Assembly: GCF_018977255.1 (NCBI RefSeq)
Contig: NW_024704772.1
Location: 62,001 to 126,000, forward strand
DNA length: 64,000 nucleotides
From: Callorhinchus milii
Taxonomy: Eukaryota
Direction: 5' to 3'
Under the pieces are notes generated by a model. That model was not told the DNA's origin and ran no database searches. It saw only the letters and a list, made by a program, of their open reading frames with translations. This document shows positions 20,684-58,300 of the stretch, piece after piece; within the stretch, counting starts at the first letter, position 1; each line of letters begins with the position of its first letter. The translations under genes were made by a program, and so were the position numbers.

Positions 20684-20930
20684 GTCGGCGCCGCCGCTTC
20701 TCTCCTCCTCGCGCGGCTCCTCACTTCCCGCCGCCGCCCCCGCGCGCGCTCCCCGCCGCCATCTTGCGCTGACGTCACCCGCCCACTGGCACCAGCCGAA
20801 CACGAGACGCGCCGCCGGCCAATGGGAGGCCGCCCCGGCTGTGGCGCGAGGCAGCGTCCGCGATCAGAACATCCGTCACCATGGCGACAGCCCCGCCCAC
20901 AACCTCTCACAGCCATCAGGCGGGGCTCCC
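20684..20930 (-). promoter_or_regulatory. SREBF2 CpG-island promoter / 5' UTR
   Basis: YY1 site AAGATGGCGG (minus strand, about 20756-20765), CRE TGACGTCA at 20770-20777, GC boxes at about 20778-20786 and 20891-20899, CCAAT at 20819-20823, X-box-like GTCACCATGGCGAC at 20875-20888. Confidence 0.75.
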
Positions 20931-20957
20931 CGACACACGTCAGAGGAGCGAGCCTCC

Positions 20958-21180
20958 CTGTACTGCAGTGACTGGCCACAGGGGTGGGGGGGGCGCTGTG
21001 CACCAGTGCTCCCTGTACTCGTGACCGACCAGGGGCTCTCTTGGGTGGTGCTCTCTGTACTGCTGTGACTGACCAGAGGAGGTGCTGTGCACTACTGCTC
21101 CCTGTACTGCTGTGACTGACCAGAGGAGGTGCTGTGCACTACTGCTCCCTGTACTGCTGTGACTGACCAGAGGAGGGCGC
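20958..21180 (+). repeat. 47-bp tandem repeat upstream of the SREBF2 promoter
   Basis: tgtactgctgtgactgaccagaggaggtgctgtgcactactgctccc at 21056, 21103 and 21150 (partial), plus two degenerate units from 20958. Confidence 0.9.
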
Positions 21181-30000: not shown

Positions 30001-31398
30001 GAAGGACATTGTTGGAGAGAGAAATCCGTATCATTACAGTTAGCAACAAGACACTGCCCTTGTGCACACTCTAACAGCTCACTGTAGGGCTCTTGCCTTG
30101 CATAGCTCCATCGACTTAAGCTTAATTTACCAGGATTTCCTCATGGGAACTTTGGAATGTAGTTCACATTTTTCTGATCCTTGAGATTAATAATTAAAAA
30201 GTTCAATCAATCAAATCTCAATCAAATTGCAAGTTTTCCTTGTAAGGTAAAGAAGCTATGTTGCTAGCACAAAATCAATCCAAATTGAACAGAATACAAT
30301 GGAAATAGGTGACGGCGAATTGTTTAACTTAACGTTTATAAGACAGTCGATTTATTCAACTAAAGCATAAAGATATGACAGACCACATCGCTGAATGAAT
30401 GACAACAAAGTAAAGTGGAATCCTGAATGGTTAATTTAGAATCAAACCAATCGTCTGAAGTCTTACAGAATCTTACCCAGGAGCTGTGCCTTTCATAATT
30501 CTGTGCAGATTAACTTGTAACTTGCGGGTTAGTGCATACCATTCCCTGACACCTCAGCTGCCATATTGACGAATGCAAATGGGTTTTAGTAAATGGACTA
30601 AAACAAGAGAAAATTGCTAAACAAAACAAAACCACGACAAATTTATTGAAGTTCATGCTATGCTATCGTCAATTATACACCATTTCTCTCCCCTCCCCAA
30701 TCGAGCAATGAGACCAGGAGATAAAGTAAAGAAGTGAAATTGAGCTACTTACGAGCAGCAATTTGTTTTTCACCAAATGGGAGACCTGGACATTGCAAAA
30801 ATCTTGTGAGGGAAAAGGTTTGAACAAACAGCATCCTGGACACCTCAGACATGCTGCCGTGTTCACGAGAGACAGTCACCCACTCCAATATGGCAGAACC
30901 AGGGAGAGATCATCACGCTCAGAGATCTCGTAAAGCAAACCAGGAGACAGCGATCATGATTGGTCAAGTCACTGAACCACTATCACGATCCTTGGGTTAA
31001 GAAACTTCAAAAAAATTCAAAAAATAATTTAAATGACACCAGAGAACATTCCTGGTTTGGGACGAGAAAAGAAAATAATTTGCTTTAGAGACACATTAGG
31101 AGCTGATAGGCTCTTGTATCCCAAATTAAATTGTAATGAGTCACGTTATAAAGCTACCTGGTCTGTTGTAAGTTGGCAGGAGCCTCAACAACAAGGGTTA
31201 TTTATTCAGCTTTTATTCTCCGAACAACTCTCGTGTCCTCTCCACCAAATATCCTAAACATGGTGTATTTCACTTACAAACGGCTACTCTGGGGTTTGCT
31301 GAGCCACTCGCAGAAGCGAGAGGCTGGATATGCTATGAAGGGCGATTGCGGAATTTGTCTTCAGACTTTGCAGTCGAGGCTGAGAGAGATGGAACATC
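27050..31398 (-). other. Probable long TOM1 3' UTR (up to about 4.3 kb)
   Basis: AT-rich, repeat-poor and ORF-free stretch after the TOM1 stop; AATAAA (minus strand) at 31212, 30642, 30351 and 27050-27055. Confidence 0.6.
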
Positions 31399-33777
31399 TC
31401 AGAGTGAGAAGAGGGCGTCCTCTGTCTTTTCCTGCTTTGTCTTTTTGGATGTGGCCAGTGACCTGGGCGGCTCTGAGGGAGGAGACGGGAGCGTGGGGAG
31501 CATCTCCGCGGCCTTCGCTCGCTCTTCAAGGAACTTATCGAATTCTATCAAGAAACAAAGTCATTGGACAAAAGGCAAACTTTCTGTATTCATTTCTTGT
31601 CTGAACCATTTACTGTTTGAGAAACATCCAAACACATTCCATTGCAACTCTTTAGTGTAGACTGGTTCAGGACGACACATGTGAGACTATCGCACTTGCA
31701 CCAACAATTCCATGTCAGAAATCAGGATTTTTTAAATATAGTTTGTTATTCTGACTTCACCCCCACCCAGTGAAACATCTTAGTAAACAGCAAATGACAG
31801 GATAAGATTAAGCTGCAGAAATAGCCTTTCCGACCTCGGTTTTATCAGCACATGAATTATTGATGCCCCATTAACCAGAGGTTTGCAGAGTTGCCAAACG
31901 TTGACTAAAGGCAAATCACAACTTAATAAGTTAACTGGAATCGGTTGTGAGTTATTAATTGGTCGATGACAGCAACAGGATTAGTTTCGTATAAATGAAA
32001 CGTGATTTGTGGACAATGTAAACATCCCTGGGATAAGGAAATGTGTGTTACCTAGCAACAGAATTACCTGGATGGATGCACAGAACATTATTGAAGTAAA
32101 AATCATTACCTTCACTTGTTACACCTTCAGCATCATCTCCCAATTCATCTTTCTAAATTTAAAGAGCCAGAAAGATAATTAATTATTCCTCAAACTTGTC
32201 AAAATAACGGGACTATTTTGTTTTGCTTTTGTCTCTTCTGCAAACAGAGCTGGCATTATAATTCTTTGGATGCAATAAAGTCAGACATTAGTGAAGGTGA
32301 ATGTGACAAATCTTCCACTGCAGAAACAAACAACACTGCAAGACGCAATCAAAATCAGAAGTCCCAATTCAGCTGGTGTGATGGTAGAGAAAGTTAATGG
32401 ATGTCCACAGTCAGTATCATGTGCAGGTCCCGATGAAAGGAGACAAGATAAATTAAAGTCAGTTTAACTCAAAAACAATCTTCCCCCTTCAAATATATGC
32501 AAGATATACAAACCCCAGGCAATACAATGTTTCTAGATGTGCTTCTAAATCAGGACAAGTGCCAGCACTAGTTATTCTAGTTCTGCCTCAGGAATGTGTA
32601 CAGTGGAGATTTGCTGCTGTCTAGTTAAACCCTAATGGAATCTGCCATTAAAATAAAAAAAATCAATGAAAACAAAATACAATTCTCACCACATCTGTGG
32701 ACAGCCACTGTTCAATGTCTTCCATTAGACAGGCCTGAGTCACAGGAATCTGTTGTACATAGAAGGGTAAGGGCAGCAGCATATTAAACACAATAAAAAT
32801 AAATTAAAATAAGATAAACACACAATAAAGATAAGGTATGAAATTCATTTTCTTAATTAATTTTACATAAATAGGGCTAGCAATGAATTTCTGATGAGAA
32901 CCTGAATTATCATCAATTTTTCCTAACTTTGTCTCATCACAGTGATAATAGTTTAAAACAATTGTGATTTAGGCAAGTTTTCAATGTGTTTAATAGTTTT
33001 GTTATGTGTGATGGAGTCCAGGATGGTGGCTGAGAGCTGCCTTCACTACAATAGCGTTGATCTGCTTTCTCTTTTGCAACATGAAGTGCTCTATCATTTA
33101 GTTTTTAGTCATTGTTTTAAACAATGCGGTCATTATTCATGCTGAATTCTGCACTTTTGTAATAATGAATTTCATACGTTATTTCAAAACATAATTTTAA
33201 AAAAATCAACTTCAACCAAACACAAAGCTGATCAGAGAATTGAAAAATAATCAGTCAAATAAAATCAGAACAAGCAGAAATGAAGAGCATAAATGAAGAG
33301 CTGGACTGCAAGGTGAGAGATACGAAGCAAGGGTTTAGACAGCCATGTGAATATACACTGGTCCATCAGTCAGACACCTGCCTGCCCCTAGTGAACACAA
33401 GCCCTGTATGTATCTCACACACCAGGTGCTCGCTAACTCCACACCACACAGGTCTGCTGGTCTGGCTAACACTCTCTCTGTTCCCCATCAGTCACGCAAC
33501 CACTTACCATCAGCTTTCATTCTACAACTGAAAAAAAACTTACCTGAAACACAGAGGGACAAGCAATCCCATTTAGCCCAAGTGATTAACTGTGTAAAAC
33601 ATGCCCAGAGCATCAATCACCAGAGCAATCCACACACACACACAGATCTACACATCTACACACACAAATCTACATACACACATCTACACATTCACCCCGA
33701 TTTACACAAACACCCATCTACACATACATACACACACCCCTACACACATACACATCCCCATACACCCCCCCTCCCGC

Positions 33778-33808
<31 letters not shown>

Positions 33809-36800
33809 TGTTTCAGGCACCACAATATTTATTATGGGCAGAAGATTATTTTTGCACAATGTGGCCATGAAACAACTGAATCGGGCTCGTCACTCACTCG
33901 CGCTGAACTCTCATCAAACTCTTTAAAACATATTATATATATATATACACACACACACATATATATCAAGTCCACTTTGAATGAACAAGAACGCAGTGCT
34001 CGTCATCTCATATCATGCAATGAGATACTCGGCTGATTGTAGAGCAACACCAAGTTTAGCATCGGATTTACAAGTTGAACAGAGAAACTTCCACAGCCTC
34101 GTTGGACTGAAATGAAAGGGCAGATCCCGGCTGTCAGCAGCTAAAGCAAACTCATAACCTGCTCCAGACAGGGAAACCCAGAAAGATGTAAACACCGTGC
34201 AACCCCCACACAGACACCACTGCGGGATATTTACCAGCCTCGTCTGAATGCAGGTTCCCCATTAAACACACAGAAATCTGCAGCACAGAAGGCCATTCAG
34301 CCTATCGAGTCCACACCGCCTCACAGAGCATAGCCGAGGAAAACATTTCTCCCTCCCCCAAACTAAAGATAAAACTGCTTTTAGACTTTACAAAAGAAAA
34401 ACGTGGCTAAATTATTTCAGTGCAAGGCTCTGCAGTGGCCAGTTAGTTTCCCTGAACCATATATCAACTTAAAACTCTTCACACTGGTCTACAAATCCCT
34501 TCACGCCCTGGCACCTGTCTACTTCTGACCTGCTTACTCCCACTCCAACTGTGCCTCTGTTAAGCACTCAGACACACTACTCTCCCTGCCTGATGAGCTC
34601 TGCATTATTGCTGTGGTTATTGGAAAAGCCAACCCTGGAGTCTTGATGCTGATATCAGTTTCCTATCCCCAGCTTTACTCCATTCTGCATCAAACCTGCT
34701 CAGAGCCACTGGCACCAGTAAGAATGAGGCAAGACTGGATTTCATCTCCCAATATGGTCTGTGTTGATTATTGAGCAGCCTCAAGATTGAGAGGCACAGG
34801 CAGCAGCCACTACCAGGGAGAGGTGGTAAACCCTCACCATTCCTTGGTTTGTCATCCAGCTGTCTAGTGATCGATTGGTGCTCTCGCTCACTGTGCTCTC
34901 CGTCTGTACCAGAGAAAGTATTTCTTAGTACATTAATCAAGCCCAGACCCCAACTCACCGAGGATGCTCATAGGCCACGTATCACCAGAACAGTACGGCT
35001 AAAATTACTAATGTGGCATTATTAAAAAGGAACCCTGGCAAAGAATCACGTTGAACTACTTTTACCAACTTCATAAAAACTGTTGTCACTGAATTACAAT
35101 ATTACATTTGCACAGTGCTTCTCACGTTGGGAGGACGTCCCAAAGCGCTAGTGAATTAATAAATTAGTGAAGGCGATTTTATTTAGCAAACGAGACGGAC
35201 TGTCTGAGATAGAGAAGCTGACAGTCAAATGTGTACAAAATCACTGAAATGCTTAAAGTATCTGCCACACAAGTATCTGCTGATGGTAATTAATAAAAAG
35301 CAATGTTGTTTTGTTGTGTGTTGTTTTGTTCAGCAATATGAGTGTATTCCCACTTTCTATGTTGCAATTCACAAAGTAAATTGGCCCGAGAACCTGAGAT
35401 CAGCCATAATATCCAAGTACTCACCGCCCCAGTATTGTGCTGCCGTGTGTCCAGTGCTCCAGCCAGCCCCTCAATCGCCTGCGGGTCCTCATACTTTACA
35501 CTGAAAGAAAATCAACAAGTTATTACTATTCAGTGTGTCCATGTTACTTCCTCACAGCGGGAGACAGAATGCAGCACATTTACATATTAGCTGCAGAAAT
35601 CATACTCGCAGTTTCTCACAGCCAAGGCTCCTGTCTGCCTGATGTTGACAGCAACAAATTACATTTCCATGTCCTTTTACATCAGGACAAGCCAACCCTG
35701 TTCCAGGTGCACACAAACATCAGCTGAGATAGCAACACAGGGCGGCCAAGGCTATTTCTGGGTAAACAACCTGCTGAGCCTCACTATCTCTTCAAGAAGT
35801 TAAAAGGGAACTTTGATTGACTGGCCAAGTATCTGTCACACGCTCAAGACTATCCGATCCAGACTGAATGCCACACACACAGACACACACACACTCACAC
35901 AGACACACACACATACACAGACACACACATACACATACACACACAACAGTAATGATCCTTACACTTGATAAAGCGTTTTTGATTTTGGGAGGACATCTCA
36001 AAACGCTTCATAAGATACACTGTAAAGTGGGGTGACTGTGTCACCTAGACATGGAATGAAGTGTGTGCATTCTCTCTCTGCTTAACCAATACCCAATTCT
36101 AGAAATTATTACATAGAGGCAAAGGCTCATGAACCCCCGAATGTGGATTGGAAACTCCTGTAGGTTAATGCACCAGCTAAACCACAAAGCTTTGCCTTTG
36201 TCAACACGGTTTCACATCCAGCTAGAATCACTGGTAAGGCTTTGGCTTGTAGCCTTCCCAGTACTGCTAACAAATCATCGCTTCAGACACAGGATACGGG
36301 ATTAAAACAGTTTCTCAAACAGTCGGCGCTGCAGAGATTAATAGCAAAGCAGCTTCAGACGTCAACAAATAAACAATTCATTATGTGGAGTGTTTACTTC
36401 ACATGTGGAAACACAATAATTCAAATACAACGACAACTTACATTTGTACAGTGTCTTTTACATCAGGAGGACCCCCAAAGTCTAAATACACACACTTTAG
36501 TGAGGAAAAAAACACTCCTGTTTTCTTGGAAATTTCTGTAGTTTTTCCTAATCTAGTGAAGTCTAGTTAATAGGAGTGACTGAGGAGAACAGGACAGAAT
36601 CCCCTCCCTCGCACCCAGATTTGCTTTTTTAAACAACTGCATTTAGCAATCATCATCATCTTCATCAAACAGCAAAGTCTCTGCACTCACCTGACACGGC
36701 AGAGCTGCACAACAGGACACAACCCAGCTTGAATGTCCTGCCAATCCCTTAGCATCAAACAAGCATTTAAAATGAAGAGGATAAAAAGACGGTGAAGCGA

Positions 36801-39800
36801 GCAAGCCTCAGCTGTCGCTGGTGGAGTTGACGGAGAACAGCTTGGGGTTTTTGCGATCAAACTTTTCAAAAAAGTGCGGGTCAGTGAAGGGCCCGCTGAG
36901 AATGATGGCTTCCAGGAAAAAATACAGAACGACGATCAGCAAACAGATGAGGAAAAACGGAATGAACTGTTTCAAGTCATTCAGATCCATCTCTTTGGGG
37001 GCTTGTCAGCAAACTAACGAAGGGCTTTTGCAGGGCACACACTTGTGAAGTAAAAATAGAACGTGTCTGAAAATGATCCCGACACACACACACACACACT
37101 CGTGGATTAGATTTAGAAATGTATTTACATCTCATTTAAAAAGGACACGGCGACTCTCTGCTGTCCTTTGACGTTTCTCCTGGCCAGAGCAAGATCAAAT
37201 TTTAAAAAAAAGTACTCAAACCTTATTCTAGATTTTCTTCCAAAAGAAGGTATTTTTGCCAAATTTATTTTCGGTTTTAGAACACGATCCATTTCCCTCT
37301 TTGCCAGCCCCACGTACACACCATTCACCGGGGAAGGGATCAGAAGTTTCAGGACGCTATTCAGCCCATGAAACCTTCTCTTTTTTAAAATAACAGTTTT
37401 AAAATAACATATTCCTTGGTTTACCTACATGCAGCAAATAGGAACCCAGATGTTAGTCAATTGGCGGATCGCTTTCTGGGGTCAGAACAACAACTACAAC
37501 AACCATCACCAGTAAAATTTATTATATTCCTTTCACTGAATATTCCCAGGGGACCAAAGCAATGCCCAATAGCCAGGGAGACAGCACATTCTGTGGTGAT
37601 GGTCAGCGGGAGTTGGGATACCGTCACCAGTATTAAATGACAGCACTTGTCTTCACTAAAGGAATAAGTGAATCACGGTGGGGTTTCACACTGAACCATT
37701 GCCCAGATATTCAAGATAAATGACGTTCCCTCCAGGCCCAGTGGGAAGATCCAGTGAAAACAAAGGTAAACTTGCCGAGATCAGCAGGGCCTGACTTCAT
37801 GTGTTGATTTAGCCCTCCAGATAGTGGATCAAGATGCAAATAGAACTAATGACACCAAGAGAAAGGCAATGAGGAAACAGACAGACAGAGACAGTCACAG
37901 ACACTCACTTCTTGCGCTGGTCGGCCAGGGAGCTACTTCTGGTTTGTGCAAACATGTCAAACTCTTCCTCCTCAGTTTTTGCAGTGACGTTGGGCTCCAA
38001 CGACTTGAGGGTTCCACTCACATCGTCTCCGGCCACATCTAAAGGTAGACAATCCCCCGTTCATCTCAAATCTCCTCAAGACAATCTAGATGAATATCTG
38101 AGCACACGGGAGCTCGGGTTTGGTTTGAGACAGTTAGGAGGGAGAGTGGAGAGAGGGCGGGACAAGGGGAGAGGTAAAATCCAGGATTTGCAACAGGATT
38201 CAGAAATAATGAACCATGCAAATACATTGATGCAGTCAAGTTAACCCACGGGAACACACTCTGACCCAATTTCTTTCTAGGTGTCCTGGTAACCTGCAGG
38301 ATTATATCCTGTGCCACACTACATTTTCAACTACATATACACACACAGAATGGTTCTTTAAAGTGGAGTCCTGCAACTCAGTAGTTAGAGCAATCGCCTC
38401 GCAAGCAAGAGATCTGGGTTTGATTCCCGGGCAGGGCGAAACCTTGGGCAAGTTTCCTTACTTCACACACACGCCTCTATTTATTTAGCAGTAAGTAGGA
38501 ACCCGGTTGTTAGGTGATTGGCAGGATCATTTTTCTGTGCGTAATATTCCCTTCAATAAAAATTTAAATTTGGTCACTCAATTGTGGGGACGCTGTTGTG
38601 CACAATTGGCTGCCACATTTCACCCACAAAATATACAGTCAATTCACTTTACAGTATGTCCTGTGAAGTGCTTTGAGACGTCTCGAAGACGTGATAAGGT
38701 GCTATATCAAATGCAAGGGTTATTATTATATAGGAATCACATTCTTTCCTCTTGTGATTCCAGCACTAATAGCCACATCCCCCCCTCGCTTAGCTCCCTA
38801 GCCCAGAGGCGGGTAGTGGGAGCTGGTTTATACATCTCACAGACTCTCATTCTTTACTTTCTAGTTAGCATTTCCCTCTTCTCTTTCAGATCTGAGTCAA
38901 ACTAGAATATGGTTACCCCTGGTGTCGACCGCACTCTGCTACCTTACTCACAAGTTGCAATTCGTCAGGTTCAACTATCACACCCACCATGAGTCTCAGC
39001 CTTCGACAGAGGGAATAATTAGATGGGAAAGTCATCCCTTTACCGTGAATCACTGAGTAACAACACTTACTGAGGCCAGCCAGTTGTGTGGACAAAGCCG
39101 AGGCCGGCACGGGGCTGACGATGGCCGGGGAGTTTGGTGTCAGGTCGATCAGACTGTCTGGGTTCTCGGTTCCAATCAATACCTTCAGAATAAACAGACA
39201 GAGGAATATGAGCAACAGAACTTGAGGAAGCAGCTGACCACGTGAACAGCATCTGAGCACAAGCTCAGGGCATACAAACTTGTGTCATTTCTGCAATTCT
39301 AACTGGATGGTTTGTGAGTCACCGAGTCACTGCCAAACCCATGTAAAGGGACTGGATAAACACAAGTCATTATTGCTGAATCTCACTATGAACTTGGCAA
39401 TTTACATCATCATCTTTGACTAAAAGTACCGATGGCTGTTGTATCACATTAGAACCTGATGTGTGTACGAGATCATTAGTCCTGGATTACTGTAATCCTA
39501 TATCTCCTGTCTCCACTGAAGTCATTGAGGGTGTGAAAGAGAAGTGTGACAGAGGGTAACAAGTACAGGACACAGCAGGCTTGCTTTGTGAGCTGCACTA
39601 ACAATATTCGTCACGCATTTTGCATTTCCAAACGCCTTCCCCCAGCATAAAGTGCAGAGAAAATGCCAACCATCTCGATAACAAACTCCACAGCAAACAT
39701 ACACCTGAGAACAACAATGAGAAAATCTGGATTTGCAGTGCTCTCTGAATTAGATACAAGGTCAGTGTTTATTGTCACTCACTCCCTCAATCTCACGACC

Positions 39801-42800
39801 CCATTATCATCACTGTGGAGTCCTGTAGCTCAGTGGTTAGAGCACTCGCTTTGCAAGTGAGAGACCTGAGTTCAATTCCAGGCGAAACCTTGGGCAAGTT
39901 TCCTTACTCCACACAGAGCCTAATAATAATCCCTCCAAAACTAAAAACAATAATAAATTTTCAATCCACGACTGTTTGTGGGACATTGCTGTGCGTAATT
40001 GGCTGCCGCATTCGCCCACAAATATACAGTCAATTCACTCTACAGTGTGTTCTGTGAAGCGCTTTGGGACGTCCTCCCGACGTGAAAAGCGCTGTATCAA
40101 ATGCCAGGATTATTATTATTATTGTTATCACTGCAGGAAATGTAAAGGAAAGTAATTGCACTCACTGAGTTCACAGCATTCTGTCCCGTTCTAAACCGTT
40201 CGAACCTGAAAATAGATTGAAGGTGAAGCAAAGAACTCTGTTGTCCGTTGGCAAAACAAATTATACAAGAAAAGTCTAAGTGCTTCTATTCCCTGCTGCT
40301 GAGGATCAGCTACAATCACATGATCATCAGAGTGAGGATTCTTCACTTTTGACCAATAACTACATTTCCCAAACAGAAACCTGGCTTATTAACACGACAA
40401 TGTGTAAATCAATCCACAACTTGGCTATCCTGCCTGCATTACAGTTAACCTGATAAATAACCTGTGCATTAAGCAATGAGTTGAAACAATAACCCAACAC
40501 AGCTAATTCCAGTGGTACGAAATTACAAAAAAAAAGTAGTCATTCAATCCACGATTGTTTGTTTATGTGCAATATCAAATACAAGGATTCTTCTTCTTCA
40601 TATTATTATTATCGAAAAAGCAATGTGAAAGAGCTACAAATAACTGACAAATACCTTGCGGACACAGGGCAGACTCAGGCTCACCTGTCATATCGCAGGA
40701 AGACATTATTGAGGTTGTCGTTGACATGCAGAAGCTCCTCAGTGACCTGCTCATTTGTCACACGAGAGATTAGCTCCAGCAACCGCTGCTGCATCGCCCG
40801 ACATGTCCTGTTCAGCTCCTGGGGGCGGCAAGGGGACATTTAAACAATAACTAGCAAAAGACAAATCATCTATAGACAGGGCAAGGCTAAAGCAGTAAGA
40901 AAGCGATTAATTAGGTTTCTAGTGTGATCAGGAAGTTCTTTTTCATTTTAGCAGCAGAAATTCACCACAGGATTTGCACACCCACCACCAAACACCCACC
41001 ACCCACTACTCCCCACCCAACCAGCCACCCACCCACACAGAAATCATATGTTATTCAGCTGCTGATGGATTGCTAACAGAGTGATATTAAACCATGGTTT
41101 GTTTCACCTGAAGCAGCTCAAGATCTGAAGAGTCCTCTTGTCCGGGGACCATCTCAGTTAACATCTCAGACATGACCTTTACGTTGCCGTTCACAACATC
41201 CAGCTCACCGCGCAGTTTAGCGATCTGTAAAGTACACACAGAGTGAAGTCAATCTGTGCAGCAAAGACACGAAAAGGGGATTTCTCCGTCAAAAACTGGG
41301 TCATTCTCAGTCCCACCAGCAGATGGCAAACGAGTAATAATAATAATAGATCATTAATAATAATAATCCCTGCATTTGATATAGCACTTTCCACGTCTTC
41401 TCGACGTCTCAAACACTTCACAGGATATCCTGTAAAGTGAAGTGACGTATATTTGTGGGCGAAACAGGGCAGCCAATTGTGCCCAGCAGCGTCCCACAAA
41501 CAGCCATGGATTGAAGCGACCAAATTATTATTAAATTATTTTATCTTGAGGGATTATTATCAGACGTGTGTGTGGAGTAAGGAAACTTGCCCAAGGTTTC
41601 GCCCTGACCTGCCGGAATCAAACCCAGGTCTCTCGCTTGTGAGGCAAGTGCTCTAACCATTGAGCTACAGGACCCCATTTGGTATGAAAACAGAAAGTGC
41701 AGTTGAGTTTACACATTAATAATAATCCTTGACACAGCGGCTCATCACATCTTCGAGACCTCTCAAAGCGCTTCACAGGATACACTATAAAGACTGTATA
41801 TTTTGTTTGAGAAACCGACAACCAATTGTGCACAGCAGCGTCCCAGAAACAGTCGTGGATTGAGTGACCACTTCTTTTTATTTATTATATTTTTTGAGGG
41901 AATTATTACCCCCAGAAAGCAATCTGTTAATCGACAATTGGGTTCGTACTTATTGCTAGGTAAACAGAGGTGTGTGGAGTAAGGAAACTTGCCGGGAATC
42001 GAACCCAGGACCTCTCAATTGTGAATGCTCCAACCACTGAGCTACAGACCATTCTGGCTCCATGCACACCCACAGGAGACAAGGGGCTGGCTGGGGAGGT
42101 GGGGGGCTGGCTGGGGATGGGGGGGGCTGGCTGGGGAGGTGGGAGGGTAGAGGAGGGGCTGAAAGTTACCTGTTCGAGGGAGGGAGTGATGGCACCGTCT
42201 GCTGAAGCCCCTGGAATGGGCAGCTCCGAGGCGGGGTAGACAGCAGGGGCTGGGGGCTGTAGGGGGACGGCATTGTGCGTCTCCGCTGGGTCCACCTCAG
42301 GGATACTCTGGAAAATAATAATTCCACATTCATACAACAACGACAACAACAACAGGCGACAAAGAAACAGCAACAAAGCAAATCCCACACAATCCAAAAT
42401 GGGAGCGAGTTCTCACACATCCCGGGACTGTGGGGAAGCTGATCCACACCACAGGGAGATTGTGAAACATTGATGCCGTTGTGTTCAGTTGCTCACTTGC
42501 TCAGTGAGGATGGCAGGAGGCGCTGTCAATCCCACCAGTTTACAGGGAAGGTGGGAGCCAGAGAGTTTCCCTCCCAATCCCATGGGAAGCACAGGGTGAA
42601 TTTTTCCGCACTCACTGGCTTAGGAAGCGAACAATCGAGAGCGCCACAGAGGGCTGACTCGATCCCACATTCGTTGCCAAACACATCCACCTTGGAGCCA
42701 AGGAGACCACCCTTTCCCCCCCTCCTCCCACCCCCCACCGAGGAAAGGCGTAAACACAGCAAAGCCAACCTGTTTGAGCCGCAAGTTCATACAGACCCGT

Positions 42801-45800
42801 TGTGGCGTGTGGATGGGCGACAGAGCGTCCAGGTCAGTCATCGGGAACTCGAGCCCTTTCCTCCGCAGTTCCTCGTACATGGCCACGACCCCAGTGAGGT
42901 CTGGAGTGCTGCGGAATGCATCAGCCCATGCCTGCACAGCATTAAACAAGGTTACTGTATGTGATGCTTCGCCATTTTCTGCTGTGTAAAGCTCGGTGCA
43001 GTTAGTTATGTTCCTTACAGACACTGAATACCGTGTATCAAGTGATTACTGACCTGAATTAAACTCAACACTTTGTCCTGCACAACATTGGGGGGGTTGT
43101 TTTTGGGCAGAATGGTTTTGACCAACACGCCTTCCACAAAGTCCCGACTGGCAACAAGGACATGGAACCGATGGCCACAATTCTTCACGCACGTCTCCAG
43201 AACCTTCAACAAGAGCAGCAGCTTTAACGCACACTTCAAACCTTTCACTTCTCCTCTCACCAACATTGCTCACATCAGCCTGGACACAGAGGTCACAGCA
43301 AGCGTTCTTACCAAAGCATCTCAACCACAGCTTGTTCGACAAAGCGGGGAATGGAAATCCAGGCTAATTTCCAGGCTAATCAAGTGCAAGAAATAACTTC
43401 TTGTTTTTAGCACATTGTGTTGAAATATTTCAAAAACACTTCGTTGAAGTGTTGCAACTGCTCTTGAAGGCAGACACGGCCATCGTCTTTTGCATAGCAA
43501 TGCTCACGAGGTGGAAAACCAATAAGTCTGAAGGATTGTCAGCCACGGCACAGAGAGACAGACTGTCTTCTCTTCTCAAATAGTGTCACCTTCCTCAATG
43601 GCTACCTGAGCAGGCGCAGGGACTCAGCGTAGTAATATATCCCAATACAGATTTACATTAATATAGACAGAGCTTTCACACCAGGAGAACATCCCAAGTA
43701 CTGCAGTTAACTCAACAACCAACTGACTCAACATAATACCTAATACCTGAGAAGTTAATAACATGAGCAAATAAGCCAACGAACAGCAAAGATGATCTTT
43801 CTTCTGCACAAATTATTATTATTACAAAGACTTACTTTAAGATAAATACTAACCGTCAGACACAGCATCACCTCCCGGAAGTTTTTATTTCCCGCGAGCC
43901 TTTTCCTCAAGGCCCTGATGGCATCTTTTGGTCTGAAACAGAAGCAGAGAATGACTGAATGAACAAAAACAATCCTCAGTACTGTGAGATGCAATGGGAA
44001 CTGATTTCTAGTGAAACATCCTATTCCTAGCTCCACTGATGGTGCAGTTGGTAAAGCCACAGCCCAAAGTAAACCTCGTCATCAGGTCCATTGTCTCACT
44101 CAGGCCATAAACACCCACCCCACCCGCCCCGTGATGGTAGCCACAGGCCATTAGTGTAACATCAACGGAATTCAGTAAAATTGCTTCACATTATAATACA
44201 AAGTTCCTGTGCCAAGGCCTCAGATTTACCTCCATTTCCGTGTTGACTTGTCTCCACTTGCTGCACTGCCCCCCAAAGCAGCTATACTTTGCTGATAATT
44301 ACAGATTTGGGTGCAAAACAAGCAAAATATAGATAAGAGACTAATGACTCAATCTCACTGAACTTGTACCAAACTGAGCCACGTTGACCTGGAAAGTCCC
44401 AGCGTCAATCTCTGCCAAATCGATGTCAACTTCCTCAGCAGGTTTCTTTACAAGAGTTTCCTGATGCCAATCACTAACAGTGACTGCAGCTGGTTAGTGC
44501 ACGATTAATGTTCAGTCCATACAGGGCCAGGCTTGACTGCTCTCTCTAACTCCCCCCTCCCTCACCCCCAGCCACGCGACTCAGACCAGATAAATAATAA
44601 TAATCCTTGCTGTATGGGTGAATTGCACCTCAGCACGACTCACAGCAAATGTGAGTGTGTAAACAGACAAGCATATCTGCTAAATGTGTAAAGTTGTGAA
44701 AACATCACCATTGGTGCATTAGCTGAATCATTCGCTGAGCTGTCAGAACCCTGCACTGTCCATTGCTCTCATACTGCGTTTCATGACAGTTTTCCTGTTA
44801 ACGGACCTGAGGAAAAGTCTAGGTTGACTTGGGAGACAGTCAGTGGGACATGAGCTCTTTGCCCCAGTGGCAGCGATTCACAAACCACAGGGTGGGGCCA
44901 GACTGACATTCAGATGTTAGGAGGAACCGTAAACCACATATCCCTCCCTGCAGCAGGACTTCACTATCCTGTTTGTTTGCTGTTTAAATAGCAATAAAAT
45001 CCTCCTATGACCCAGCGGGCTTTATAAATCTGCAGTACGTTTTCAGGAGTCAGCACTCTGGCCTCTGTGTCAGGGCTTTAAGGTCACTTTAGGCTGACAT
45101 ACCAGGGAGGTGCTGTAGGAGCACTGCCGTAAAGGAGGTGCCGTCTTTGAACATCTGCCGTCTGCCCGTTTAGATAGTTGTTAAAAACTCCCACAAGACG
45201 AGCCCTGGGAACCATCTCACACCTCTCCTCTACACTTCCCCACCCCAACCAGAACAATGCAGTTAAAATCACCTTTAAAATAGCCAAACAAAATATCTCA
45301 AAGTTTCCTGTGCACTGTTCATGCCAAAAATTGCAAAATAAGACAAAAAAAATCTATTGCAGTTTTCACTAATTGAAATCTCTGCCCAGACGATGTACAC
45401 AGAGGATAAGGGCTCTGGGACTCCACCCTACGTGAGAAACGCTGTATAAATGCAAGATGTGGAGTCCTGTAGCTCAGTGGTTAGAGCACTCGCTTTGCAA
45501 GTGAGAGACCTGAGTTCAATTCCAGGCAGAGGGCGAAACCTTGGGCAAGTTTCCTTACTCCACACAGAGCCTAATAATAATCCCTCCAAACCAAAAACAA
45601 TAATAAATTGGTCATTTTCAATCCATATGACTGTTTGTGGGACATTGCTGTGCGCAATTGGCTGCCGCGTTCGCCCACAAATATACAGTCAATTCGCTTT
45701 ACAGTATATTCTGTGAAGCGCTTTGGGACGTCCTCCCGACGTGAAAAGCGCTATATCAAATGCAAGGATTATTATTATTATTATTATTATGTTGTTCCTT

Positions 45801-48800
45801 CGACAGAATCTTCCAGGGTGAGGAGAAGCTTATTGAAGAGCAGGAATGGAAACCCGGTGTGGACAGACAAGGGGAGCAGAGCTGCCAGAGAATGTAAGGA
45901 ACCGAGATACAAGGAATGTGGCCAACCTTGTTCCACACACGCCAGATACTGATTCTTGGGCTGCTTCACAGTGCACAGAAACTCCCAGTAATCTGCTAAA
46001 AATAACTCTCACAAACCACTGTAGTTAGTTATACACATTGGCCACTACTCCTGACAAGCAACTTATACTTACAGATAATACAAGAGCTGACGTCTTTACT
46101 GAGAGTTTCAAAGACATGAATGCTGCCAGTCCGTACATACTGGGGAAATATTTAAAGCTTTAAACGTGAAGCAGTAAACAACAACAATCGGGTGGGGGGG
46201 GATGGAGATTGGAAGAACAATTGTGGAAATGGAAAGGAATGGTTTAAAGTGTTGCTGTGGCTGGATGGAGGTGGATCCAGCTCTGTACGTGGCACATGGT
46301 TGCTCTTATACAACAATTCCGGCTGGTGTTTACACTCCACACACCTGCAACCTTCCTATCCTCCCCTGTTTCCCTTCTCCATCGAGCATAGTCACAATTC
46401 AAGGCCTCTGCACACAGAGGGAGAGTTACTCACCCTTCCTCAGTCTCATTGATGATATCACAGATCTCGATGTTCAGGCCCCAATCCTCAGCCTGCAACG
46501 ATCCATCAGTTGCTTGTTCTGTGTTTGTAAAACAAGGAGAGTGAAAGCTTTCAATTTGAATATCAACTTACTGCTATTCACTGTGAGCACAGTCCTGTAT
46601 TAAAGAAACATGTCACTGAAATCGACGGTGAAAAATAAAAAGGCTGGAAATTCACAAGTCGTTCAGCAACTGAGAAAAAAGTTAGTTTAGCAGCTCAACA
46701 GCCAGAAACTGCCAGATCATTTACAGTCGCCCTCCACACAGGGTAGCGTCTCAGAGCGCTTGTCACTGCCACTTACGTCACCGTGCTGTTAATATCCCTG
46801 CTGCAGTTATTCATGTATTTATTGTTTGATAATTAGGTGTTTAATTGCGGCTCCGGCTCTGATTTAGACGTTGTACAGTCACAGCTCCACAATGTATATG
46901 CTCGGCCAAGGAGAAGATGCACGAGTCATGGTTCCATTTGGTAAAGTACTGGTTTGTTTACCCTGAATTTAATGCTGTTATTTCTCACCCAATCTCTGGT
47001 GAGTGCTCTTTAGTGTGTGCTCTTCGCTGAACAAATCTCAGTGGGGAGAGAGTTAAAAAGAAAACAGCAGCTCCTCCAACAGCACAAACAAGATCACCAC
47101 AAACTCAGCCATGAGCAGATCTACTCCTGAGCCAGCCAAGCACATCAACATAACGCCCAGCTCAGCCCTGAGCCTTGCCCCCGACAAACACAGCCATACA
47201 CCTCAGCCGACCAGCCAAGCAGACACAACACCCTCCACCCTGTGGCGAGGCAGAAGAAACAGATTATGTGGAAAAATCTGGAAAGTTGGAACGTTGGAAA
47301 TTCGCCATAAGCAGTTTGAACATGGCCTGGAGAAGAGGAAACGTTACTAAAGGGATTAAGGGATATGGGGATAGGGCGGGTAAATGGAATTAGGTTAGAA
47401 GATCAGCCATGATCTTATTAAATGGTGGAGCACAGGCTCGAGGGGCCGAATGGCTTACTCCTGCTCCGATTTCTTATGTTCTTATGAAACGTGAAGAGTT
47501 TTCCTGAGGAGGTGGTGGAGGCAGATTGTGTCAGCAAATGTAACAGGGAAGTAGATAGGTAGCCAGCCAAGAATTTAATTCAGGGACATGAGGGGTGAAA
47601 AATCACTTGATGGCCAGTCATACTATTACTCTGTTCCTGTTTCCAATATTGCTCGAGTAATAATTAACTGGACTTTGTGCCTTTTGTTGTGAAACCATAC
47701 ATGGAGCAGAGCAGATTCAACCTCAAGAGGGAAAACTTCTGAAGTGCAATAAACAACCTCTTAACTATTACTGGCAATCACTGCTTCACATCAGCACCAG
47801 ATCTAGATGACAACAGGACTGTGATACCTGTTCCAATGTCCTGACTCATCCACCCTTTCTGGTAACCTATCACAGCCACTAACTGCTAATTAAAGAAATA
47901 TTTTTGGGTGTATCCCTGAAACACATCCTCGACCTCTTGTTCTTCCTAATAATCAAATCAAAGTACACTACACACTGGCTGCTCACACAGTAATCAAGTT
48001 CTTATATAATTTGTAAAAGTTAAACAACAAAGAAGTCCCAAGATCAATAGCGACTGGGATTGAGATTGATAGAGCACCATCTTGGCACAGTTACAAACCT
48101 CTCAATGTCAGGAAGCTAAGCTAATACATGCCTGCACCTGTATTATTAATTCAATTCGCGTAGGTTTAACCTGAGCAACTGTTTGAAACCAGCACTCAAA
48201 CAATATCATCAGCACTCAATTATTTAAAGATGGAGGAAGCCAACCCAGGCAGCAGGACCAAGCGCATACGAGGGAAGTTTCTCTTAACAGAGGAGAAACC
48301 AGGTCACAAGGAGGAGTGTGAAAAGGCAGGACCCTTGACTGATGCTGAGGCTGTGATGTGAAGTCTGCTGGTGGGTTTTCTGGCAGGAGATCAAATGGGC
48401 AAAGGTCCTTTTTCATCCCAACTTCTTTTGATCTTTATATAACTTTTATAAAATAAAAGCCACAGAAGCAAATTATTTTGCTGTGACTTGATACAAATAT
48501 ATTGATATAGCGAAGAGTCTTTTATCGGGAGGACATCCCAAGGTGTTGATATCTGATGCATCAATGACAATAATAAGGCGCTACATCAAATGCAAGGATG
48601 ATAACAATAATCTCACATTTTACAATTATAGGCAGAAGCAGAGCTCAATTAACCATTACTGATCATTTCATTCTAAAACTAGAATCATTTATAATGGAGT
48701 CTGCTGACACTCATCGTCTGATACTGATCACACGTGGGGAAGCCACCACAGGCTGACAGGGACCCGTGAAACCACATGACAGCATGAATCAGTGATTTCA

Positions 48801-50480
48801 GAGTAGGGAGGGGATCTATAAATACAAATATGTGCAATTACAATTATTAGGGTTGCTGTGGGAGGCATTCCAACATCTGTTAGCATAGGTGGGGCATCAG
48901 CATTGAATTCCTAACCTCAACTACACCGATTGGTAAAACGGGTTGTTCTTTTGCAGATAATAGAGTCACCAAAAACTGCTCAAATTATCAGGAACAAATT
49001 TCTCTCAGTCACAAAATGGTGCAGAGTTTAAACGGAAACATAAGGGACATAATAACAGAAGTGTAAACCAAGGACCATCTTTGCTGCGTTTCTCTCTAAA
49101 CCAGACTCACTCACTCAAATAGCTGTCTCAAAGACTCACTCATTAACTATCATTTAAAGAAATGAAAGTCAGTCTTTTCTAACAATAGACACAGTGTGCA
49201 CGGAACCATGGAACTCACCCCATGTCTCAGGAATGGCTGAAAGTCACTCACTAAATAAAATTACTTACTCATTTTGTTTGTTGCTGTGTGGGGTAAGCAC
49301 TCCGGGACTCTATCCCGTGTGAGGGGCGCTATATTTGTGCACAACTCACATTCACTGCACTACACAGTGAATCATGTGAGTGGCCTTGAGACATCCTCCT
49401 GATGTGAAAGGCATATAAATGTAAGGATTATTAATATTGTTGTTACTAAATAATAATCATAAGGTCACTCAATCCACGACTGTTTGTGGGGACGCTGCTG
49501 TGCGTAATTGGCTGCCGTGTTTCGCCCACAAAATATACAGTCACTTCACTTTACAGTCTATCCTGTGTAGCACTTTGAGACATCTTGACGACGTGATCAG
49601 GCGCCATATCAAATGTGAGGATTATTATATCAATGTTATTAAGATTATTATTAACGTTATGATCATTGCCGTTGAAGCTGATTTGTTGTCCCAGGGCCAG
49701 ACGTGCCCTCGGAGGCTCCCGATTGACTGTCAGAGCCGCCAATCACCAAATAAAAACAACAAACAACTAAAATAGGAATAAAATCANNNNNNNNNNNNNN
49801 NNNNNNNNNNNNNNNNNNNNNNNNNNNNNNNNNNNNNNNNNNNNNNNNNNNNNNNNNNNNNNNNNNNNNNNNNNNNNNNNNNNNNNNNNNNNNNNNNNNN
49901 NNNNNNNNNNNNNNNNNNNNNNNNNNNNNNNNNNNNNNNNNNNNNNNNNNNNNNNNNNNNNNNNNNNNNNNNNNNNNNNNNNNNNNNNNNNNNNNNNNNN
50001 NNNNNNNNNNNNNNNNNNNNNNNNNNNNNNNNNNNNNNNNNNNNNNNNNNNNNNNNNNNNNNNNNNNNNNNNNNNNNNNNNNNNNNNNNNNNNNNNNNNN
50101 NNNNNNNNNNNNNNNNNNNNNNNNNNNNNNNNNNNNNNNNNNNNNNNNNNNNNNNNNNNNNNNNNNNNNNNNNNNNNNNNNNNNNNNNNNNNNNNNNNNN
50201 NNNNNNNNNNNNNNNNNNNNNNNNNNNNNNNNNNNNNNNNNNNNNNNNNNNNNNNNNNNNNNNNNNNNNNNNNNNNNNNNNNNNNNNNNNNNNNNNNNNN
50301 NNNNNNNNNNNNNNNNNNNNNNNNNNNNNNNNNNNNNNNNNNNNNNNNNNNNNNNNNNNNNNNNNNNNNNNNNNNNNNNNNNNNNNNNNNNNNNNNNNNN
50401 NNNNNNNNNNNNGGTGGGGGGTCGGTACCGATGCGCTGCCCCACGGGGCTGCTGTAGGGGCTGCCGTACAGGAACTCCAT
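31399..50480 (-). CDS. TOM1: Target of Myb1 membrane trafficking protein (VHS + GAT), 16 exons, about 520 aa (498 without the 66-nt exon)
   Basis: Exons 50480-50429, 46518-46434, 43932-43854, 43203-43054, 42931-42797, 42307-42170, 41224-41108, 40818-40685, 40205-40166, 39182-39071, 38038-37909, 35500-35425, 34903-34838, 32749-32690, 32152-32110, 31544-31399; frame continuous. [31 protein letters not shown] clathrin box, [20 protein letters not shown] (as recalled for human TOM1), [14 protein letters not shown]; adjacent to HMGXB4 as in human. Confidence 0.93.
36808..36990 (-). CDS. Putative 60-aa single-pass membrane microprotein nested in TOM1 intron 11 (not recognised)
   Basis: [60 protein letters not shown]. 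Kozak gagATGG; in-frame TGA 15 nt upstream; 42 of 60 codons end in G/C in an AT-rich intron; flanked by an acceptor (37068-37067) and a CAG|GTGAGT donor (36691/36690). Confidence 0.55.
   Translation of the reverse strand: MDLNDLKQFIPFFLICLLIVVLYFFLEAIILSGPFTDPHFFEKFDRKNPKLFSVNSTSDS
38364..38730 (+). mobile_element. tRNA-headed SINE, full length
   Basis: ggagtcctgcaactcagtagttagagc...gggtttgattcccgg head; tail gctatatcaaatgcaagggttattattat. Confidence 0.88.
39817..40125 (+). mobile_element. tRNA-headed SINE, young short subfamily
   Basis: Near-identical to 45461-45790 and 51505-51822; (TTA)n tail. Confidence 0.9.
41340..42048 (-). mobile_element. Two tandem tRNA-headed SINE copies (about 41340-41675 and 41715-42048)
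   Basis: Heads gtcctgtagctcaatggttagagcac (41675) and tctgtagctcagtggttggagc (42048), each followed by the family body and (TTA)n tail. Confidence 0.85.
45461..45790 (+). mobile_element. tRNA-headed SINE, young short subfamily, inserted into an L2 tail
   Basis: ggagtcctgtagctcagtggttagagcac...gagttcaattcc...gcgctatatcaaatgcaaggattattattatt; flanked by gctgtataaatgcaagatgt on the left and tgttgtt on the right. Confidence 0.92.
47300..47490 (+). mobile_element. CR1-like LINE 3' end
   Basis: aagggatatggggatagggcgggtaaatgg...gatcagccatgatc...ggctcgaggggccgaatggcttactcctgctcc, with terminal (TTCTTATG)2. Confidence 0.8.
49787..50412. other. Assembly gap (626 N) at the start of TOM1 intron 1
   Basis: Run of n beginning 16 nt after the exon 1 donor. 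Confidence 0.99.
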
Positions 50481-55300: not shown

Positions 55301-58300
55301 GGGGAATGAATTCCAGGGGGAAAACTGGCCATGGCAGTGGGACACATGGAGTGAGGAATGTGGGAAGGACTGGAGACAGACAGGGCTGGAGATGGTTAGG
55401 AATAAATATATTTTAGGGGAAAAACACCAGGTAAAAACCAAAGTGGAGAGACAGGGAGGAGCTGCTTGGCCGGGGATGATGAAGTACCTTTGGGTTTGGT
55501 GGATTTGGTTGATTTTGTAATTGCCGTGTCCGAGGGGTCTGTTAGTTTCCGTTTGATGGTTGTGGCCTCGGCTTTGTTCTGTTTGTGCTGCAGGTAAAGA
55601 CACTTCTGCTTCCAGGCCTGGGGTCAACACAAACACAGCTTATTCTCCAATAGACACTTTAGGGTTTGCCCCGAGCTGGGGGTTGGAAGGTTGGGTGGGG
55701 TTAGGGAGGAGGGTTGAGTGTGGTTGGGGGTGGGGTAGGGGTGTGAATGGGGTTTGGGGTGAGACATGGTCAACGAGGATGGCTGAAAATAGCACAAAGG
55801 CAGAACAATTTGCTTCTGATTGGATGAGACGGCACTTACCAGCTTTTCCTTCTCAGGAAGCTGTTTCCACACCTCGGCCAGTTTTTTGCTCAATTCCCCG
55901 AAATCTGTCCAAACAATTCACCAACATTTTAGTGGCACTTTTCAGGGGCTGGAAATGCCTCATTGTATTAACCTAAAGACCAACACATTAGGTCTGAAAC
56001 TTCCCTCGCCTCCTTCAAGGCACGCCTTACGACCCTCTTCTTCGACCGTGCCTTTGGCCACCTTCCTACCCCCACCCTCCCAGATCCCCACGCTCCTCTC
56101 CCCCCCCCCCCCCCCGTGCTCAGGTCCTAATCCCTGACTGTTCAGCGCCTTGGGTCATCCTCCTGACGTGAAAGGCGCTTTGCAAATGTAATTTTGTATT
56201 GTATTAAAATTCACACTCATGCACAATTTGGGAAAATTGTTTGATTTAGCTTTAATTAGCCACTGGACCACAGGGTCTCTGCTGTTCAGTTCTGTCTGTT
56301 TCAATAAAACCCCCTTCATCAACATATTTGGATGTAAAACAAGGCAACTACCTTTCTTGCCTATTGCCGGGTGTTCAGCAATGATGTTAACTCTGTATTC
56401 TTTGCAGAAGACCTGATAGGCCGTCATTATTTTCTTTTTCTGTAAAAGAAATGCAATAATAACCGTTACAGAATAACTTCAACCAGGACACTTTCTCCAG
56501 CCCGGAACCAGCCGTGACAGGACCTACACATAACTACACAAACGTTCTCTCCAGGTGAGTTTCGCTTACTAATATTTACATTTTGGACACATCTCTTTCC
56601 AATATTCAACTTCTTGAAAAACTCCCATTAATAAACCTCTTTAGCAATAATCGATGACCCATTGTAACTAGTCAGTCAATTCACTTTACAGTGTATCCTG
56701 AGAAGCGTTTGAGACGTCTCGAAGACGTGATAAGGCGCTGTATTATTGTTTCTCATCCACCTGAAAACGGCACCTGTGACAGTGCAGCGCCCCCTGCTGG
56801 TTGGTACCAGTGACTGCGTGGCGCCCCCTGCTGGTTGGTACCAGTGACTGCGTGGCGCCCCCTGCTGGTTGGTACCAGTGACTGCGTGGCGCCCCCTGCT
56901 GGCTGATATCTGTGCTGCGGGGTGATGTCTGAGCTCACTTTGGTCAGGGCTCAAGTGGGAAATGTGTAACATGAGATAGTGTCAATGGCAAATCTGGGCT
57001 ACAACTTCCTCTGACCCAATTATTCCCAAATTACCTTTTCGGGTTTCGGGTCAAACTTCTCTTTTTCCTTTTCTTCCTTTTTCTTCTTTTTTTCACTGTG
57101 GCTGTCGGTATGGAATATGGGCGGGGGAGGTGTGGGAATAGTGTAGGGAGTGACCACTGTGGGCTGGAGAGGAGGGAAGGTCACGACGCTGGGCTTCACC
57201 TCTCCCGGGGACAAGCCGGAGCCTCTCTTGGACTTGGAATGTTTCTTGTCTTTGTGTTTCTCTCTGTCTTTGTCTTTCTTCTTCTTGCTCTTTTTTGCTT
57301 TCTTCTTTTTCTTGATCTCGCGATACGAGTCGTCGATGACCAGCTCCCCGGCCTCCAGCTCGGCCCCCGAGGACGAGGCGCTGTCCAGCGTCTCCAGCCC
57401 CGAGAACTGATACTCGGCCAGGCCACTACCGTGCACCTCAGAGTAGAAGGAAGCCTCGGACTCGAAGCTCTCGCTGACCCGGGCCTCGGCTCTGTGCTTC
57501 TTCTTGACGCTCTGGGCCTTGGGGAATGTTCCCTGCTCCTCCCGTGAAGCTTTCTTGGACGGTTTCTTCAGACTGGAGGTGGCAGCGAAGCTGAAGGCCT
57601 CGTCGTCGGTGCTGGACTTGTCCTTGGGTGACAGAAGCAGCTTCACTCTCAGGCCCTCACCGTCCCTCGCACTCCCTCCCTCTGTGTTCAGAAACAGCGG
57701 CTTCAGCTTTTTGGCTTTGTGACCCTCTCCCTCTTGCCCGGCATCCTCACTGTCTGCTCCCCCGGACCTCTTCCTGTGCTCCTTCCTGCTATCTGTGGGG
57801 AAAGCCGTGTGCGAGGACGAGCTAAAGGGAGAGAACGAAGATTTCTCAGTCTTTTTGGAGGACTTGCTCAGTGCTGGGGAGGTGATAGCCTTCAGGAGCC
57901 CCATGGCTGTGTCCGAGTGGTGACTCTCACTTCTCTTCTTCTTCCTCACAGGCTCCATTGGTGACAGCTCTGCACAATTAGTGAAAGGAAAAATCATCTT
58001 TTTACAATAATAATAATCCTCGAATTTGATACAATGCCTTATCAATTCTTCGAGATGTCTCAAAGCAATTCACAGGTAAGTGAATTGACTGTATAATTTG
58101 TGGGTGAAACGCAGCAGCCAATTCCACACACCAGTGTCCCACGAACAGTCGTCGATTGAATGAACAACATTTTTTTTAAAGGACCATTACCCCTGGAAAA
58201 GCAATCTGCCAATCGCCTAACAACCGGGTTCCTACTTCCTGTTGGGTAAAGAGGTGCGTGGTGTAAGCAAACTTGCCCAACATTTCCCCCTGACCGGGAA

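Follow-up and report, generated by a model that had tools for sequence, protein, structure and literature searches.

A conserved predicted membrane micropeptide gene in intron 11 of Callorhinchus milii TOM1

We analyzed a 64,000-nucleotide (nt) stretch of Callorhinchus milii DNA (the window; positions 62,001 to 126,000 of contig NW_024704772.1, RefSeq assembly GCF_018977255.1). An initial annotation, made from the sequence alone, had noted a short open reading frame (ORF) on its minus strand at 36808 to 36990, inside TOM1, and proposed that it encodes an undescribed transmembrane microprotein. The ORF is almost certainly a protein-coding gene conserved among jawed vertebrates: it belongs to a protein family under purifying selection, three records tie its relatives to TOM1, and one splice joint places its exon on a TOM1 exon. 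The overall reading that we favor, and judge likely as a whole, is that a promoter inside the intron drives a transcript using the 3′ exons of TOM1 and that this transcript encodes a glycosylated single-pass peptide with a cytosolic N terminus and a luminal C terminus (N-in/C-out), predicted to act as an accessory subunit.

A protein family represented in TOM1 intron 11

Mapping of the C. milii TOM1 protein gave 16 coding exons (exon 11 matched at 98%) and placed the ORF, as first proposed, in intron 11 (37908 to 35501; 2408 nt). From the ATG at 36990 to the TGA at 36808 to 36810, the minus strand translates to 60 amino acids plus the stop. The start context (AAAGAG-ATG-G, with G at −3 and +4) bears out the strong Kozak context claimed for it, and an in-frame TGA (37006 to 37008, minus strand) indeed lies 15 nt upstream of the ATG, the open frame comprising 65 codons. 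The reported G/C content of third codon positions was reproduced (42/60 = 0.70, against 42.9% G+C in intron 11; binomial P value of 2e-5), as was the retention of CpG dinucleotides, of which the ORF contains 8 (4.4 per 100 nt versus 1.9 in the intron). The intron had been called AT rich, which is correct in direction but not in degree, as the surroundings are moderately AT rich at 57%.

The 23-residue hydrophobic run described earlier is present, but a glutamate (E27) lies inside it. Its 19-residue hydropathy of 3.01 ranks second among the 240 ATG frames of at least 40 amino acids in the window. The product has one hydrophobic helix of 19 to 23 residues with no cleavable signal region ahead of it. 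The predicted transmembrane helix (residues 9 to 31; 36898 to 36966, minus strand) opens with the F-x-P-F-F-L-I motif of the family and corresponds to helix 10-32 of an AlphaFold model (predicted local distance difference test, pLDDT, of 91 to 96; predicted template modeling score, pTM, of 0.41). It is followed by a juxtamembrane motif conserved in the alignment (residues 32 to 50; 36841 to 36897, minus strand), predicted to form a short luminal or extracellular helix, and the model contains a second helix at residues 40 to 46, with low confidence. A predicted N-glycosylation site, the sequon N55-S-T (36820 to 36828, minus strand), lies 23 residues after the GP motif.

Conservation with a bias toward synonymous change had been named as support for such a gene, and both were found. 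A phmmer search of 1.84 billion representative proteins returned 14 relatives (E values of 7e-15 to 4.5e-5; 46 to 57% identity) from sturgeon, teleosts, and frogs, those named to species being Staurois parvus, Arapaima gigas, Acipenser sinensis, and Synaphobranchus kaupii. The 90% clusters of these relatives amount to 55 sequences, 42 of them listed and most without a species label, and include no named mammalian member. The relatives are labeled "hypothetical," "unnamed," or "uncharacterized" or are named after a fused BTB domain, and none carries a functional name. They share a core of [LF][RK]PF[ILV]PFFLI, a 23-residue helix, and then [SG]GPFxDxxFFxKFxxRWP. In an 18-row alignment, F9, P11, F12, I29, G33, P34, D37, F40, and P49 were invariant in the rows that cover them, with G33, P34, D37, F40, and P49 unchanged in 18/18. 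The ends of the helix were more conserved than its middle (mean entropy of 0.60 and 0.87 versus 1.34), and conservation along a helix face was marginal (P value of 0.04). A leave-one-out family hidden Markov model (HMM) scored the ORF at 86 bits and the next window frame at 7.7. In the tree built from the 18 rows, 2/15 branches were starred, and the C. milii ORF had a long branch; the tree gave clusters P0121 and P0122 no taxon. Two protein searches found the ORF to be single copy in the genome; three genome matches (L002, L003, and L006; E values of 0.6 to 4) were rejected as paralogues, scoring at most 6.7 bits with the family HMM.

A word-index homologue search near the query length returned no relatives, a blank that we attribute to limited sensitivity because the full HMMER search then gave the 14. 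The initial annotation could match the ORF to no known small membrane protein family, and this still stands: 16/16 members lacked a Pfam match, a PDB sequence search with the family profile and a Foldseek search with the ORF model (pTM of 0.41) gave 0 matches each, and the best ESM Atlas match to the ORF was 0.79 (all were <0.8), with no usable match for P0035, a frog-like relative described below.

A metagenome scan of contigs identified two fish-like DNA loci, L007 and L008, among 462 candidates (an earlier scan with a two-row alignment gave 0/263). Each is a one-exon, uninterrupted 135-codon ORF whose own ATG is preceded, at a distance of two codons, by an in-frame TAA. Comparison of L007 with L008 gave a ratio of nonsynonymous to synonymous change (dN/dS) well under 1, namely, 0.059 over the 45-codon core (Fisher P value of 2e-6; core mismatches by codon position, 3/2/11) and 0.23 over the whole 135 codons. 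Between the window ORF and the fish loci, the proportions of synonymous and nonsynonymous differences were 0.72 to 0.77 and 0.30 (P values of 4e-5 and 1e-5); dN/dS was ~0.16 against L007, and synonymous sites were saturated against L008. Contigs of the four sequencing runs considered below contained no indel within the ORF (4/4).

Hydrophobic frames do arise from T-rich DNA (several others in the window exceed 2.4 in hydropathy), and, with ESM Atlas matches all below 0.8, the ORF might be taken for a repeat or for a frame that arose by chance in T-rich intron DNA. That explanation is extremely improbable, and family and codon pattern together refute it: the 14 relatives, the 86-bit HMM score, the dN/dS values, the splice joint described below, and an alignment of the nonhydrophobic tail alone to P0035 that scored above 20000/20000 shuffles.

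Several side observations were made on family members. Those of teleosts and sturgeon carry a Ser/acidic N-terminal extension of ~50 residues with a conserved SR..T.H..GG.GY motif (L007, 1757 to 1915; L008, 312 to 470), which is absent from the C. milii ORF and from frog members. The sequence past the ORF stop bears a faint likeness to the teleost tail. L007 (~1427 to 1518) and L008 (1 to 102) share a noncoding TATA-like element ~310 to 330 nt upstream of the ORF (alignment score of 89 versus a shuffle maximum of 27), a probable promoter; no likeness to it was found in the upstream intron of the window.

Splicing to TOM1 exon 12 and links of relatives to TOM1

Four of the 14 sequencing runs listed (X1, X2, X3, and X9) were compared with the window. 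X1 to X3 were treated as RNA and X9 as DNA because canonical TOM1 joints were present in X1 to X3 and missing in X9. An X3 contig of 448 nt aligned over 418 nt to 37108 to 36691, with no mismatch or gap, and was then joined to 35500, with GT..AG ends. The joint 36691-35500 puts the ORF exon onto TOM1 exon 12 (35425 to 35500, minus strand), the acceptor of which is common to the canonical transcript (joint 35500-37909, from exon 11) and the micropeptide transcript. The shared transcription with TOM1 that had been surmised is thus supported, while the description of the ORF as hidden in an intron needs amending: it lies within intron 11, but the RNA contig splices its exon to exon 12. In the DNA run, X9, neither this joint nor the canonical one was among those listed.

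The ORF exon (36691 to 37108, minus strand) is an alternative, probably first exon, its 3′ end being given by the splice joint and its 5′ end marking a probable region of transcription start. Its donor, GTGAGT (36685 to 36690, minus strand), was used in X3 and has the best score in 35400 to 38060 (8.0, versus 4.0 for exon 11 and 4.5 for exon 12, with a rough matrix). X3 depth in the bin 37158 to 37331 was 1.47, which equals the contribution of the piece 37295 to 37458 alone; by this arithmetic on binned depth, X3 has no cover at 37158 to 37294, and since the piece explains the bin depth, the best upstream acceptor (37179) seems unused. Over the ORF, X1 and X2 had unspliced low-depth contigs, just as they did elsewhere in the intron, and this cover speaks neither for nor against a transcript. 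Contig depth in X3 was 45 for the micropeptide joint and 25 for the canonical exon 11-12 joint, values that cannot rank the transcripts. No AATAAA or ATTAAA occurs between the ORF and exon 12; the nearest AATAAA signals (31217 and 31206) follow the last TOM1 coding exon and with it make up 31206 to 31545 (minus strand), the likely 3′ end of the micropeptide mRNA.

The ORF stop lies 117 nt before this exon junction, and an in-frame TOM1 ATG follows downstream. Both would suit a conserved regulatory upstream ORF that damps translation of a short TOM1 transcript or triggers its decay, with the peptide itself mattering little. We consider this very unlikely in view of the strong amino acid constraint and the conserved helix and motif, and the fish genes at L007 and L008 have one exon and their own AATAAA with no TOM1 exon nearby.

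Relatives of the ORF are tied to the TOM1 gene in three records, namely, one frog-like transcript, one contig from a frog, and one gene model from sturgeon. The first, P0035 (155 amino acids; one Logan contig), was the only one of 92 short proteins with the TOM1 C terminus to have the micropeptide motif; it begins with the motif and continues in frame into TOM1 exon-12 sequence. It shares 47% identity with the ORF over 36 residues (BLASTP E value of 1e-12), its TOM1 portion is 88% identical to Staurois TOM1, and 0/20000 shuffles reached the alignment score, either for the whole or for the nonhydrophobic tail alone. The second is that of the Staurois member CAI9576214.1 and a TOM1 fragment, CAI9576213.1, which have consecutive accessions and contigs that are both 347,382 long. 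In the third, Acipenser gene model P0129, a VHS domain and exon-11 sequence lead directly into the motif and a stop. The TOM1L2 paralog (contig C16) has no such ORF in its matching intron (~210 bp), and none of 23 full-length TOM1/TOM1L2 proteins contains the motif.

P0035 is exactly a fusion of the helix to the TOM1 C terminus, as would be expected if the ancestral role were that of a membrane-anchored short TOM1, the helix being fused to the myosin VI-binding C terminus and tethering myosin VI; the ORF stop would then be derived or the transcript bicistronic. The motif of human TOM1 that binds myosin VI, given as residues 437 to 463 in the available passages of PMC6673701, falls in exons common to both products. 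Moreover, a second ATG of the ORF exon, at 36755, opens a frame of 21 codons and 2 nt that runs to the donor (36691 to 36755, minus strand), has the phase of exon 12, and, from its sequence, could give a short TOM1 C-terminal peptide. A membrane-anchored short TOM1 is nevertheless unlikely as the ancestral product. The fusion is one case in 92, the position of the ORF stop is common to two other clusters, the reading of frog members P0125 and P0145 takes a different course from that point, and the context of the second ATG is weak (TGTTTG-ATG-C). In addition, because an N-in/C-out topology is likely (see below), the TOM1 part of the frog-like fusion would be luminal, away from myosin VI; the frog C-flank is the most acidic of all (1 basic and 5 acidic residues).

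The order of elements in P0129 (VHS, exon-11 sequence, motif, stop) would instead fit use of the ORF exon as an alternative last exon, giving a tail-anchored VHS-GAT-helix isoform of TOM1 that acts as a membrane-fixed ubiquitin-cargo adaptor, and an N-in/C-out topology would suit such an isoform. It is very unlikely, however. In C. milii, TOM1 exon 11 (37909 to 38038, minus strand), the upstream flank, has a phase-2 donor and cannot join in frame onto the helix because the stretch that separates the upstream stop from the helix contains no phase-2 AG; for a join from exon 10, skipping exon 11, only two weak phase-1 AGs are suitable, and no joint from exon 10 or 11 to the ORF exon was among those listed. 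The motif is also absent from the 23/23 full-length proteins, and the pre-helix stretch of the sturgeon model matches the N-terminal extension of teleosts, which there comes after an ATG of its own, and this makes an automatic join in that model likely.

Topology, proposed role, and contrary observations

We favor a free peptide. In the ORF (P0002), P0121, and the P0122 cluster (ten members), the stop comes 29 residues after [SG]GP, and a position shared in this way speaks against a local accident. In the C. milii genome the frame of the ORF differs from that of exon 12, and in-frame continuity with TOM1 exons was not found. The ORF product is predicted, with good confidence, to be a stand-alone peptide.

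The sequon is offset from the GP motif by +23 in the ORF and P0121 and by +23 or +25 in the P0122 cluster. A sequon occurs within 60 residues after the motif in 10/15 sequences, compared with 3.7 expected by shuffling (a count reached in 1/5000 shuffles), and at least one lysine or arginine is present in the N-flank of 14/15 sequences, the remaining one being truncated. These C-side sequons, together with basic N-flanks and acidic C-flanks, make an N-in/C-out orientation, the type II topology of the initial annotation, likely, and the micropeptide is probably a single-pass protein of this topology, as far as sequence features can indicate.

We propose that a promoter inside intron 11, likely tissue restricted, would start a transcript slightly above 37108 and that TOM1 exons 12 to 16 would serve as its 3′ untranslated region and supply the poly(A) site. 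The helix would act as a signal or tail anchor, leaving the N terminus in the cytosol and the C terminus in the lumen, where N55 would be glycosylated. The peptide might then bind a partner (a transporter, channel, receptor, or trafficking complex) and set its activity or trafficking. A partner-binding role is suggested because there is no catalytic or known fold and because the helix ends and the short aromatic luminal helix are conserved. By analogy, we predict that it serves a larger membrane protein as an accessory subunit, a role whose chances are at best about even.

Several observations weigh against parts of this reading. The joint between the ORF exon and exon 12 was found in one of the three RNA-like runs, in one contig, and its short side is 30 letters against a bar of 31 (30 letters are likewise what the canonical joint has). 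The joints considered are those listed, with 150 weaker joints besides, and contigs cannot prove a transcription start or an expression level. A stop more than 50 to 55 nt before an exon junction invites nonsense-mediated decay, and the micropeptide mRNA, with its stop 117 nt before the junction, would therefore invite decay; short start-proximal ORFs can escape it. In one contig of X1, the second position of codon 48 (window position 36848) is changed, turning Asn into Ile, possibly an allele; this position is Trp in 14/18 aligned rows. As to topology, kinship inflates the sequon count, as one site is common to several of the teleost rows; 5/15 sequences, the frog row included, have no C-side sequon; 4/15 have a sequon on the N side; and the N-flank of the ORF itself is net acidic (1 basic and 2 acidic residues). 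Finally, L007 (3248 bp) and L008 (1033 bp) contain no TOM1 exon, and arapaima and eel models (P0127, P0147, and P0132) fuse the micropeptide to a downstream BTB-domain protein, which is either a prediction artifact or an indication that the copies in teleosts have moved away from TOM1. Nesting in TOM1 may thus not hold in all teleosts. A BTB search of the C. milii genome gave matches of 28 to 34% only and did not place the teleost neighbor.

A predicted membrane protein family kept from chimaeras to frogs and teleosts, a span on the order of 400 million years, has neither a name nor a Pfam profile. Public gene models miss the micropeptide or glue it to neighbors, namely, TOM1 in sturgeon and a BTB gene in arapaima and eel. 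Expression data for TOM1 that are biased to its 3′ end may measure this second gene, and some tom1 knockouts may remove it; fish or frog models offer a ready test of the micropeptide.

The TOM1 locus and comparison with known systems

The gene at 31402 to 50480 is named "TOM1-like protein 2" at NCBI and TOM1 in UniRef; a closer TOM1L2 match lies on contig C16, and the NCBI label is likely a misnaming. TOM1 exons 13 (34811 to 34903) and 14 (32690 to 32749) are used alternatively in public isoforms P0003 to P0005, and the exon 12-13 joint was seen in X1 only, among the joints listed. At 37706, a contig of X1 and one of X2 leave the reference and continue in an identical loose sequence, which may reflect an unmapped splice or an allele with an insertion. 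Five tRNA-like matches in TOM1 introns (38368 to 38438, 39819 to 39890, 41604 to 41674, 41984 to 42051, and 45467 to 45529) are most likely heads of a tRNA-derived short interspersed element, given the very high contig depth at 38376 to 38723.

Elsewhere on the minus strand of the window lie an intronless 137-codon profilin ORF with a good start context (4881 to 5294; Pfam PF00235, E value of 3e-29), a DUF4171 protein (57020 to 57997), which we take to be HMGXB4-like, and a gene at ~13000 to 20683 with a long poly-Gln exon (17539 to 18165), presumably SREBF2-like. With SREBF2 next to it, TOM1 would repeat the arrangement of a known gene pair, TOM1L2-SREBF1. Long spurious ORFs arise at 19200 to 21000 and 60300 to 61000 from low-complexity tracts that are G/T rich and strongly skewed.

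The micropeptide shares its locus and the exons from 12 onward with the TOM1/TOM1L2 adaptors, which combine VHS and GAT domains with a myosin VI-binding C terminus; it differs in being another reading product, with no VHS and no GAT. In the parts of a TOM1 review available to us (PMC7952518), no passage was found on a transmembrane or alternative-promoter isoform. Our search for literature on a TOM1 intron microprotein, with subscription journals outside its scope, found no description of the ORF.

Burk et al. are said to have described in 1997 a chicken tom-1 with two promoters, only one of which is Myb inducible and C/EBP dependent. Synergy of Myb and C/EBP at tom-1 is noted, citing Burk et al. 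1997, in the accessible portions of PMC2018721 and PMC2175353. The likeness to chicken tom-1 is that of an internal promoter feeding common 3′ exons, as the X3 contig suggests here; the difference is that 37908 to 36990 contains no Myb consensus site, with one C/EBP-like site at 37262, in the upstream intron. The short chicken transcript may be an orthologue of the micropeptide transcript, a tentative lead; if it is, the transcript is already known, and the peptide becomes more interesting. We put forward more tentatively, as possible but on balance doubtful, that TOM1 houses a second gene family in which the glycosylated micropeptide is the real product of the Myb-inducible transcript that gave TOM1 its name, and that lineages switch between a free peptide and a membrane-anchored TOM1 fusion by shifting one donor or stop. 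[quoted passage not shown]

Sarcolipin, phospholamban, and DWORF, FXYD and KCNE proteins, and SMIM proteins are single-pass regulatory micropeptides or accessory subunits. The micropeptide resembles them in size (<100 to 140 amino acids), in having one helix and a short juxtamembrane motif, and in having no catalytic domain, and it differs from them in giving 0 Pfam, 0 PDB, and 0 Foldseek matches. KCNE and FXYD proteins are N-out, whereas the micropeptide is predicted to be N-in/C-out with a luminal glycan. Hemotin/Stannin, according to the available sections of PMC4807881 a transmembrane peptide from a small ORF that is conserved and linked to endosomes, showed no sequence similarity to it (the Pfam scan was blank). 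It may serve as a model for the possible action of a peptide linked to TOM1. A member of none of the families tested, the ORF is real, conserved, and unannotated, and its product, by analogy, would act like the single-pass regulatory micropeptides.

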